Part shown: positions 20,096-63,239 of the stretch, piece after piece
Numbering within the stretch: the stretch's first letter is position 1
Layout of the letters: every line of letters begins with the position of its first letter
Source: Escherichia coli
GTDB lineage: Bacteria; Pseudomonadota; Gammaproteobacteria; Enterobacterales; Enterobacteriaceae
Reading direction: 5' to 3' (one strand)
DNA length: 64,000 nucleotides
Assembly (NCBI RefSeq): GCF_022846255.1
Contig: NZ_AP025682.1
The notes under the pieces: generated by a model
What the model saw: only the letters and a program-made list of their open reading frames with translations
Told to the model about the DNA's origin: nothing
The model's database searches: none
Position numbers and translations under genes: made by a program

Positions 20096-20130
20096 CCCCG
20101 TACTGATTATGAAGAATAATCAGTACGGGG
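20096..20130. terminator. Strong hairpin terminator after gss
   Basis: 15-bp perfect stem ccccgtactgattat / ataatcagtacgggg, 5-nt loop. Confidence 0.65.
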
Positions 20131-61290: not shown

Positions 61291-62060
61291 GTATTGCCAT
61301 TTCCTTAACCCCACCTGATAACCCTTAGCCCAAGGGTGAGTGCGGAACTGTCAAACCCGCTCACCGGGCTGAGTTCCGATGTAGCAAGATTTATCTCCCT
61401 CCAGAGCACCACGGAATGTTCGACAATACTGTAGGAATTCGTTTTTCACCATGTAGCCTTCGTTAATCTACACCTTTCTAAGACTGTAAAGATGCTTAAG
61501 TGTTTTGACACATTATGATTATTAATAGTTGTAATAAATCATTGAGTAACAATTGATAGGTCAAAACATATAGGATAATTCTTATGTGATCTGTATTTTG
61601 TGTAGCCTGGAAATTAGTAAAATTACTGGAGATAATCAGAAAGGGAATTTCAAATAAGCATAATAATTTCCAGGGAAACTATTCGTCGATTTTAAGAAAT
61701 GTCTGCTCAGGTATATCTACTGAGGGATGGTGTTGGTTGTAACGCTGGTTAAAATAAACACACAAAATAATCAGGATGTATATTTTAATCGACGAAAATA
61801 ATTACCTTCGGGATTATTGATGCGACTTAAATAACACCATTTAAACGTGATATAAATCACAAATATGGCTGTGAAGAGGGTGCTGTAGATATAAATAAGA
61901 AGTACATGAGTGAATTTTAAATAGGAAAATAGTTTCTCGCTAAACAATTTATTGGTAATCAATCGCATGCGTTCTGGTTTGAGACAGATTGCAGGTGTTG
62001 CTACGCATAAAATTCATAGGCGGTATTATAATCAAGTAGTTAACAGTAATAGTAAAAAAT

Positions 62061-62076
62061 AATTTCTTGCGAAATT
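62061..62076. repeat. Palindrome AATTTC-N4-GAAATT, copy 1, in kpsM leader
   Basis: aatttcttgcgaaatt read directly. Confidence 0.8.
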
Positions 62077-62176
62077 AGCGGCCCATTTTGAATAAGTGTG
62101 TTCCGGAGTAATCCAGAACGCATGCTGCTTTACGTCTTTTTCAAGCCATATTGGTTAAGCAAAAAGAGGTAGAAAT

Positions 62177-62192
62177 AATTTCCTGAGAAATT
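62177..62192. repeat. Palindrome AATTTC-N4-GAAATT, copy 2, in kpsM leader
   Basis: aatttcctgagaaatt read directly; preceded by gaaat as in copy 3. Confidence 0.8.
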
Positions 62193-62311
62193 AACTCTAC
62201 ATTCTGAAACGGCCAGTTTTCTGAAATTACCAGAAGACCGAATACATTCATGCCTGAAGAATGGATTAGAAGAAACGAGACGGAAATAGATCTATTTATC
62301 CCTGCGGAAAT

Positions 62312-62327
62312 AATTTCTGATGAAATT
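62312..62327. repeat. Palindrome AATTTC-N4-GAAATT, copy 3, in kpsM leader
   Basis: aatttctgatgaaatt read directly. Confidence 0.8.
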
Positions 62328-62422
62328 GTTTTCGGCTATTAAAAAGGTCAAACCGGCTGAGTGAATTTTATCCAGTTACAAATAAGCATTACCTCCAGTG
62401 TATTGGTAGCTGTTAAGCCAAG

Positions 62423-62434
62423 GGCGGTAGCGTA
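62423..62434 (+). promoter_or_regulatory. ops element (RfaH recruitment site, JUMPstart core) in kpsM leader
   Basis: GGCGGTAGCGTA, containing the 8-bp ops core GGCGGTAG, 32 bp upstream of kpsM ATG. Confidence 0.8.
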
Positions 62435-62462
62435 CCTGAAGAGATTAGGATCACATCATCAA

Positions 62463-63239
62463 ATGGCAAGAAGTGGATTTGAAGTCCAGAAAGTCACCGT
62501 AGAGGCATTATTTCTACGAGAAATACGAACACGCTTTGGTAAGTTCCGTCTGGGATATTTGTGGGCGATTCTCGAACCCTCTGCGCATTTGCTGATACTG
62601 TTGGGCATTTTTGGTTACATTATGCACCGCACGATGCCAGACATCTCATTCCCGGTGTTTTTACTTAATGGCCTGATTCCCTTTTTTATCTTTAGCAGTA
62701 TCAGCAATCGTTCTGTAGGTGCTATTGAAGCGAATCAGGGGCTGTTTAATTATCGACCAGTAAAACCCATCGATACGATCATTGCGCGTGCATTGCTTGA
62801 GACACTGATTTACGTTGCTGTTTATATATTGCTTATGCTTATCGTCTGGATGGCAGGCGAATATTTCGAAATAACAAACTTTTTACAACTTGTGCTTACC
62901 TGGAGTTTGTTAATCATTCTTTCATGTGGCGTTGGCTTAATATTCATGGTCGTTGGTAAAACCTTCCCTGAAATGCAAAAGGTCCTGCCGATACTGCTTA
63001 AGCCGCTGTATTTCATCTCCTGCATCATGTTCCCTCTACACTCGATTCCGAAGCAATACTGGTCATATCTACTCTGGAACCCATTAGTGCATGTCGTAGA
63101 GTTAAGCCGCGAGGCAGTTATGCCTGGCTATATCAGCGAAGGCGTGAGTCTGAACTACCTTGCAATGTTCACTCTGGTCACCCTGTTCATCGGTCTGGCG
63201 TTATACCGAACGCGTGAAGAGGCAATGCTGACATCATGA
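62463..63239 (+). CDS. kpsM: Capsule polysaccharide export ABC transporter permease, 258 aa
   Basis: ORF-track 292 aa trimmed to MARSGFEVQKVTVEALFLREIRTRFGK (ABC-2 permease signature region); AT-rich codon usage. Confidence 0.9.
   Translation: MARSGFEVQKVTVEALFLREIRTRFGKFRLGYLWAILEPSAHLLILLGIFGYIMHRTMPDISFPVFLLNGLIPFFIFSSISNRSVGAIEANQGLFNYRPVKPIDTIIARALLETLIYVAVYILLMLIVWMAGEYFEITNFLQLVLTWSLLIILSCGVGLIFMVVGKTFPEMQKVLPILLKPLYFISCIMFPLHSIPKQYWSYLLWNPLVHVVELSREAVMPGYISEGVSLNYLAMFTLVTLFIGLALYRTREEAMLTS

Follow-up and report, generated by a model that had tools for sequence, protein, structure and literature searches.

The leader of the E. coli kps locus contains an exact inverted repeat, and the locus raises the question of whether the two arms close a large stem in the leader RNA, delimit the remnant of a small mobile element, or are complementary for some other reason. 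In the 64,000-nucleotide stretch of E. coli DNA that we analyzed, hereafter the window, the sequence GCATGCGTTCTGG (positions 61965 to 61977) is the exact reverse complement of CCAGAACGCATGC (62113 to 62125). A script check bore out the preliminary description of an exact 13-nt repeat around about 135 nt: the spacer between the arms runs from 61978 to 62112 and is 135 nt long. A repeat search that admitted near matches extended the pairing to 16 nt with a single mismatch and 94% complementarity (61965 to 61980 with 62110 to 62125). We suggest, at a probability that we put at roughly 0.6, that the repeat is a by-product of cross-complementarity between homologous hairpins, designated B, in neighboring units of a modular leader, and that it is probably not a key regulatory element.

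The arms lie in the 1,171-nt intergenic region between yghD, a gspM homologue that ends at approximately position 61291 to judge from how homologous loci of complete E. coli genomes are annotated, and kpsM (62463 to 63239), which was recognized from its open reading frame and from homologous-locus annotation, encodes an ABC transporter permease, and, as the first gene of region 3, is followed by kpsT. A JUMPstart element (RF01707; Rfam, 58.5 bits, E = 1.4e-12) occupies 62396 to 62434 and includes the ops sequence GGCGGTAG at 62423 to 62430; JUMPstart/ops at the 3' end of the leader is the known RfaH loading site. The label of kps leader given to this region was correct, with its position between the end of yghD and the kpsM ATG and with JUMPstart/ops inside it. 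The leader features and kpsM are all on the plus strand of the window. The yghD-kpsM region has a G+C content of 36%, compared with 52% for the window. Even at a permissive threshold, Rfam matched nothing in the leader other than JUMPstart, and none of the small open reading frames in the leader was conserved across alleles; a 30-amino-acid frame at 62250 to 62342 contains a stop codon in the Nord8-type allele and a frameshift in S88. Promoter and terminator scans revealed no element tied to the repeat.

With respect to transcription, the arms are situated 498 to 338 nt upstream of the kpsM ATG. In K5, transcription from PR3 has been located as starting 741 bp upstream of kpsM (Stevens 1997, via PMC8960920), and the arms therefore fall inside the 741-nt untranslated region (UTR), whatever the length of the K5 allele; the start mapped in K5 does not lie downstream of the repeat, an arrangement that would have counted against the RNA stem envisaged in the preliminary description. 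H-NS is reported to bind this UTR, which is also reported to moderate how much transcription reaches kpsM and region 3 (Xue 2009, via PMC8960920). The resemblance to the PR3 UTR of E. coli group 2 capsules is one of locus: the repeat is inside that UTR, upstream of JUMPstart/ops. In the searchable literature we found no description of the unit architecture, the array of hairpin A palindromes, the 116-nt polymorphism, the inverted repeat, or the inversion that are reported below, and Stevens 1997 and Xue 2009 themselves may mention repeats. YDC107 is not K5, to judge from its region-2 gene content.

The leader (61652 to 62440) is composed of six degenerate units of approximately 130 nt, each beginning with a hairpin or palindrome A, which a hairpin B follows. 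The hairpin A motif, AATAATTTC-N4-GAAATTA, had 12 strand matches in the window against an expectation of 0.49, and 10 of the 12 were in the leader. Repeat and motif searches placed A1 (AATAATTTCCAGGGAAACTA) at 61662 to 61681 and A2 at 61797 to 61816; A3, at 61928 to 61947, is degenerate and was recognized from the repeat search and from allele variation. A4 (AATAATTTCTTGCGAAATTA), at 62058 to 62077, is paired in 100% of allele cells, A5, at 62174 to 62193, was identified by repeat and motif search and by allele pairing, and A6, at 62309 to 62328, has a pair probability of 1.0. Successive starts are thus spaced at 135, 131, 130, 116, and 135 nt. Hairpin B follows hairpin A by about 40 nt and has a consensus of roughly GYGTTCYGG-loop-CCAGAAC. 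When the units were aligned, the B elements were in register in units 1, 3, 4, and 5 (CTGCTCAGG..CTGAG, GCGTTCTGG..CAGA, GTGTTCCGG..CCAGAAC, and GTTTTCTGA..CCAGAAG, respectively), where they begin 38 to 42 nt past the hairpin A start, and the left arm of the inverted repeat aligned in register with the hairpin B 5' arms of units 1, 4, and 5. Units 2 and 6 match the scheme only loosely. Overall unit identity is only about 51%, and Tandem Repeats Finder reported no array in the leader because the units are too diverged; the periodic motif and the changes in copy number at unit boundaries nonetheless identify it as a modular leader derived from tandem repeats. Across 29 alleles, variable columns made up 18% of the hairpin A arms (p = 4e-5) and 88% of their 4-nt centers (p = 6e-6), compared with 41% of the remaining leader. 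To judge from this variation, it is hairpin A, and not the inverted repeat reported previously, that bears a signature of constraint in the leader, and the pattern would suit either a hairpin under constraint or a spaced dyad serving every ~130 bp as a protein-binding site.

The right arm belongs to a unit that many strains lack. The leader was found in 1,699 of 5,426 complete E. coli genomes, with one copy in each, and allele alignments established that unit 4 (62058 to 62173), which is bounded by hairpin A direct repeats, is present or absent as a block of 116 nt. In a nine-allele alignment it was absent from S88 (K1), WCHEC96200, and SMS-3-5. When positions 61920 to 62200 were used as the query, 469 (29%) of the 1,603 genomes with the region carried unit 4, and the others aligned up to the deletion point; some 71% of complete kps-positive genomes are without it. 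The right arm is inside unit 4, and the left arm is present in long and short alleles. The deleted length, 116 nt, is equal to the spacing of A4 and A5, and the polymorphism therefore represents the gain or loss of one unit and not an insertion between the arms of the inverted repeat. The most divergent alleles, of the Nord8 type (78% identity) and the E69 type (88 to 89%), have the long form, which is therefore probably ancestral. Short and long alleles also occur on otherwise very similar backbones, as in the loci L002 and L072, and unit number would therefore change by recombination between repeats or spread by recombination. The leader was not found beyond E. coli and close Escherichia relatives: a scan of genome contigs with a JUMPstart word returned 58 loci, and the kps leader was present in 3 of these (E. 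coli E69, E. whittamii, and Escherichia sp. E1V33), 2 of which end before the repeat. A plasmid search for the segment gave no match, and a scan of metagenomes added alleles but no deeper divergence; metagenome matches outside kps shared just the 18- to 20-nt search word.

These features suggest how the repeat may have come about. Hairpin B of unit 3 supplies the left arm of the repeat (its 5' arm), and hairpin B of unit 4 supplies the right arm (its 3' arm); both appear to be well-kept copies, whereas decay has affected their partners within the same unit, the B3 3' arm (CAGATTGC) and the B4 5' arm (GTGTGTTCCGG). Each arm would now find its best complement one unit away, and the enclosed segment (61978 to 62112) consists of the tail of unit 3 and the initial 55 nt of unit 4, in which hairpin A4 lies. 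According to the folding model, the leader RNA of a long allele could adopt either B3 together with B4 or a 13-bp helix that loops out 135 nt, A4 included. As the RNA is transcribed, the local hairpins would probably be the first to form. Because most capsule-bearing strains do without unit 4, the long-range helix would be an optional alternative that depends on the allele, and not an element that regulation requires. The perfect repeat may also recombine as DNA, and one precise inversion of the spacer was found, probably produced by template switching between short inverted repeats during replication. One observation sits uneasily with an origin as a by-product: the match between units is perfect (13 of 13), whereas the hairpin of each unit is imperfect, which is not obvious from pure decay, and selection on the helix or homogenization of the arms may therefore have contributed.

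The alternative that fares best, although we consider it doubtful, is that the long-range helix is a selected structure of the PR3 5' UTR in strains with long alleles, perhaps switching against B3 and B4, and that it tunes the transcription or the mRNA that reaches kpsM, for example, through access of Rho, RNase cleavage, or a response to temperature. The helix would be transcribed, to judge from the start mapped in K5, in a UTR reported to moderate transcription, and the folding of the leader, a check proposed in the preliminary description, showed it to be thermodynamically competitive. The 13-bp duplex has an energy of -23.4 kcal/mol, and the minimum free energy (MFE) structure of the isolated 181-nt stretch contains the long-range helix (-46.5 kcal/mol; z = -2.56); the antisense strand of the same stretch scored about as well (z = -2.97), and the z-score of the fold therefore does not identify a strand. 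When the whole UTR of the window allele was folded, the MFE structure had the local hairpins B3 (GCG.UCUG-N8-CAGA.UGC; 61969 to 61992), which competes for the left arm, and B4 (GUGUGUUCCGG-AGUAAU-CCAGAACGCAU; 62096 to 62123), which competes for the right arm. Alone, these have energies of -12.4 and -13.7 kcal/mol, and in the full-UTR ensemble their pair probabilities were 0.77 to 0.86 and 0.83 to 0.86, respectively. At 37°C the long-range helix had a probability of 0.14 to 0.19 in this allele, and to force it cost 0.2 to 0.7 kcal/mol, which is near the MFE; in the allele of the C25/YDC107 type (L005/L107) its probability rose to 0.66, making it the predicted dominant form, because substitutions weaken the competing hairpin B3. 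In short alleles, the left arm folds into local pairings. The leader RNA of long alleles is predicted from these calculations to have two mutually exclusive folds of nearly equal energy.

Such an arrangement recalls RNA switches of the attenuator type, in that the right arm can pair with 62096 to 62106 or with 61965 to 61977 in exclusive folds of similar energy. The kps leader differs from them in that the open reading frame, Rfam, and terminator scans revealed no leader peptide, ligand-binding domain, or terminator with either fold, no terminator-like site was found 3' of the long-range helix, and the element is absent from most alleles. Capsule expression is switched off at 20°C, and at that temperature the predicted probability of the helix in the window allele was lower (0.05 to 0.07), which argues against a selected helix. 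K1 strains with short alleles are also thermoregulated; on both grounds, a role for the repeat as an RNA thermometer was rejected.

The long-range helix was paired in 96% of the cells of an alignment of 25 distinct long alleles, drawn from complete genomes and metagenomes, and at least 11 contiguous pairs were kept in all 25, including the allele of 78% identity. Five pairs were altered on one side to G.U and three were broken in some alleles, two of these being terminal. All five one-sided changes at internal positions (2 to 12) were transitions compatible with G.U pairing on the sense strand, which would mildly favor constraint at the RNA level; the local hairpins accommodate these changes as well. 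In no case among the 13 pairs were both sides altered, a result of little power at the low diversity of these 25 alleles; column identity averages 90 to 91%, and the missing covariation is therefore weak evidence. Our reading of the alignment gave approximately 10 substitution events in the arms, 5 of which keep pairing through G.U and 5 of which break it, apparently in rough agreement with the neutral expectation, and variable columns accounted for 31% of the arms against 41% of the background (p = 0.42). Hairpin B4 was paired in 90.9% of cells, and an alternative six-pair helix of the left arm with ACGCAU at 62003 to 62008 was paired in 98%, with essentially zero predicted occupancy in the window allele. 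Sequence variation cannot separate the long-range helix from the local pairings, as all three fit the data. What stands of the RNA stem put forward in the preliminary description is that the arms would be transcribed within the PR3 UTR and that the helix is competitive; its status as a selected structure is not supported, given that the right arm is missing in most kps-positive genomes, K1 strain S88 among them, that compensatory change was not seen, that conservation of the arms does not exceed that of the background, and that the helix has no match in Rfam. The long-range helix, on the alleles compared here, does not appear to be a conserved RNA element.

That the arms match by coincidence is improbable, even though the statistical weight of the repeat in a scan of the whole window is modest. 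Two loci in the 64 kb have exact inverted repeats of at least 13 nt with a loop of no more than 300 nt, and about 0.3 to 0.4 such repeats are expected by chance per window (0.37 in dinucleotide-based, first-order Markov simulations and approximately 0.29 by an analytic estimate for a 13-nt repeat within 300 nt); the lack of excess conservation in the arms is also consistent with chance. However, the expectation scaled to the 1.2-kb leader alone is about 0.007, and the arms lie at homologous positions of adjacent units, each with a related hairpin; we regard their origin as nonrandom because they belong to two homologous hairpins in neighboring units. The other exact repeat in the window is a perfect 15-bp palindrome at 20096 to 20130 (CCCCGTACTGATTAT-gaaga-ATAATCAGTACGGGG), approximately 15 nt past a taa triplet that is a putative stop codon; it resembles a terminator-type hairpin that is devoid of a T-run.

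The inversion of the spacer bears on a further alternative, in which a recombinase flips the 135-bp segment and renders the group 2 capsule phase variable through the PR3 transcription that reaches kpsMT and region 2; flipping would then be measurable in the lineages with the perfect repeat (about 177 of 5,426 genomes), and E. coli TUM1226 would be a clone in the minority orientation. The complete E. coli genomes were searched with an artificial sequence built by reverse complementing the 135-nt spacer, and TUM1226 was the one genome to match it full length in a single piece. Its spacer (L110, 1579 to 1713) is the exact reverse complement of that of strain C25, with no differences, and the flanks of the two strains are identical over 600 nt on the 5' side and 330 nt on the 3' side. 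Both orientations of a segment bounded precisely by the arms are therefore represented among complete genomes. In this respect, as in size and geometry, the segment resembles fimS of E. coli and the invertons of Bacteroides capsule promoters, in which inverted repeats flank a short segment upstream of an operon for a surface structure and both orientations have been sequenced; inversion control of capsule promoters in Bacteroides provides a precedent (see references in PMC10028968). Programmed inversion is nevertheless highly improbable here. A total of 177 genomes, ATCC 25922, NCTC86, and O25b:H4 strains among them, carried the perfect-repeat allele in the normal orientation (at least 99% identity), and the inverted fraction is consequently 1 of about 178 perfect-repeat genomes and 1 of about 469 long-allele genomes, an orientation ratio of about 1:177 in place of the common mixture seen in the known invertons; none of 25 metagenome kps loci was inverted. 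The repeat is also poorly conserved as DNA, matching at 13 of 13 positions in 3 of the 25 long alleles, at 11 or 12 in most, and at 8 in the Nord8 type. No recombinase gene is adjacent (the neighbors are gspL, yghD, kpsM, and kpsT only), the segment has no promoter, simple scans of the normal and inverted alleles gave no sign that inversion creates or removes a promoter or terminator, and no kps inverton turned up in a literature search.

The flip in TUM1226 is better accounted for by a rare inversion between short repeats than by a programmed switch. Inversion of the spacer and homogenization of the arms are documented outcomes of template switching between short inverted repeats (PMC8604942), and the TUM1226 allele has the corresponding features of short perfect arms, an exactly reversed spacer, and unchanged arms and flanks, in a rare event confined to one lineage. 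The likeness to the Ripley model of that study is tempered by spacer length, which was 2 to 5 nt in yeast, where short spacers were favored, compared with 135 nt here (PMC8604942). We infer that template switching is the most likely origin of the inversion, which may also be an assembly artifact.

The remaining proposal, made in the preliminary description, that the arms mark the ends of a mobile-element remnant, here taken as the terminal repeats of a small nonautonomous, MITE-like insertion, is scarcely credible: perfect 13-nt termini around ~135 nt and an overlapping presence/absence polymorphism are as expected of such an element, but the bounded segment is single copy and was found only at the Escherichia kps locus and at no unrelated locus or plasmid, the flanks (ending in AATCAATC on the 5' side and beginning with TGCTTTAC on the 3' side) show no target-site duplication, and the indel at 62058 to 62173 removes the right arm only and ends at direct repeats, not at the inverted repeat.

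Group 2 capsules, such as K1 and K5, rank among the major virulence factors of extraintestinal E. coli, and modulation of their expression by the long PR3 leader is established. The parts of note are the unit architecture, the five- versus six-unit polymorphism, the constrained arms of hairpin A, and the single inversion. The leader emerges as modular, with repeated hairpin units that have conserved arms and hypervariable centers; the number of units, five or six, differs between strains, and in some lineages the leader holds a perfect inverted repeat, and the 135 bp between its arms can flip. Modularity, unit number, and the flip provide testable handles on the function of the leader and on possible differences between strains in capsule regulation.

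Some further features of the leader were observed. The window leader (61292 to 62470) had a best full-length match of 96.9% identity among the 5,426 complete E. coli genomes, with subsegments reaching 98%, and is therefore a mosaic allele with no exact copy in the collection. In SMS-3-5 (L006, 1 to 1361), IS200/IS605 tnpA and tnpB (InsQ) are in place of the yghD-proximal part of the leader. A 30-nt block at 62233 to 62262 (GAAGACCGAATACATTCATGCCTGAAGAAT), which contains a small CATTC..GAATG hairpin, is nearly invariant, even in the allele of 78% identity; equal conservation was seen only from approximately 62370 through JUMPstart (leader column entropy, 0.01 to 0.08). Finally, in E. coli DG341-1 (L104) and in the metagenome locus L075, the leader and JUMPstart/ops are intact and the sequences diverge directly 3' of ops, from about column 878 of the allele alignment onward, where the next gene is annotated as a hypothetical protein and not as kpsM; this divergence marks a putative recombination breakpoint immediately behind the RfaH loading site.
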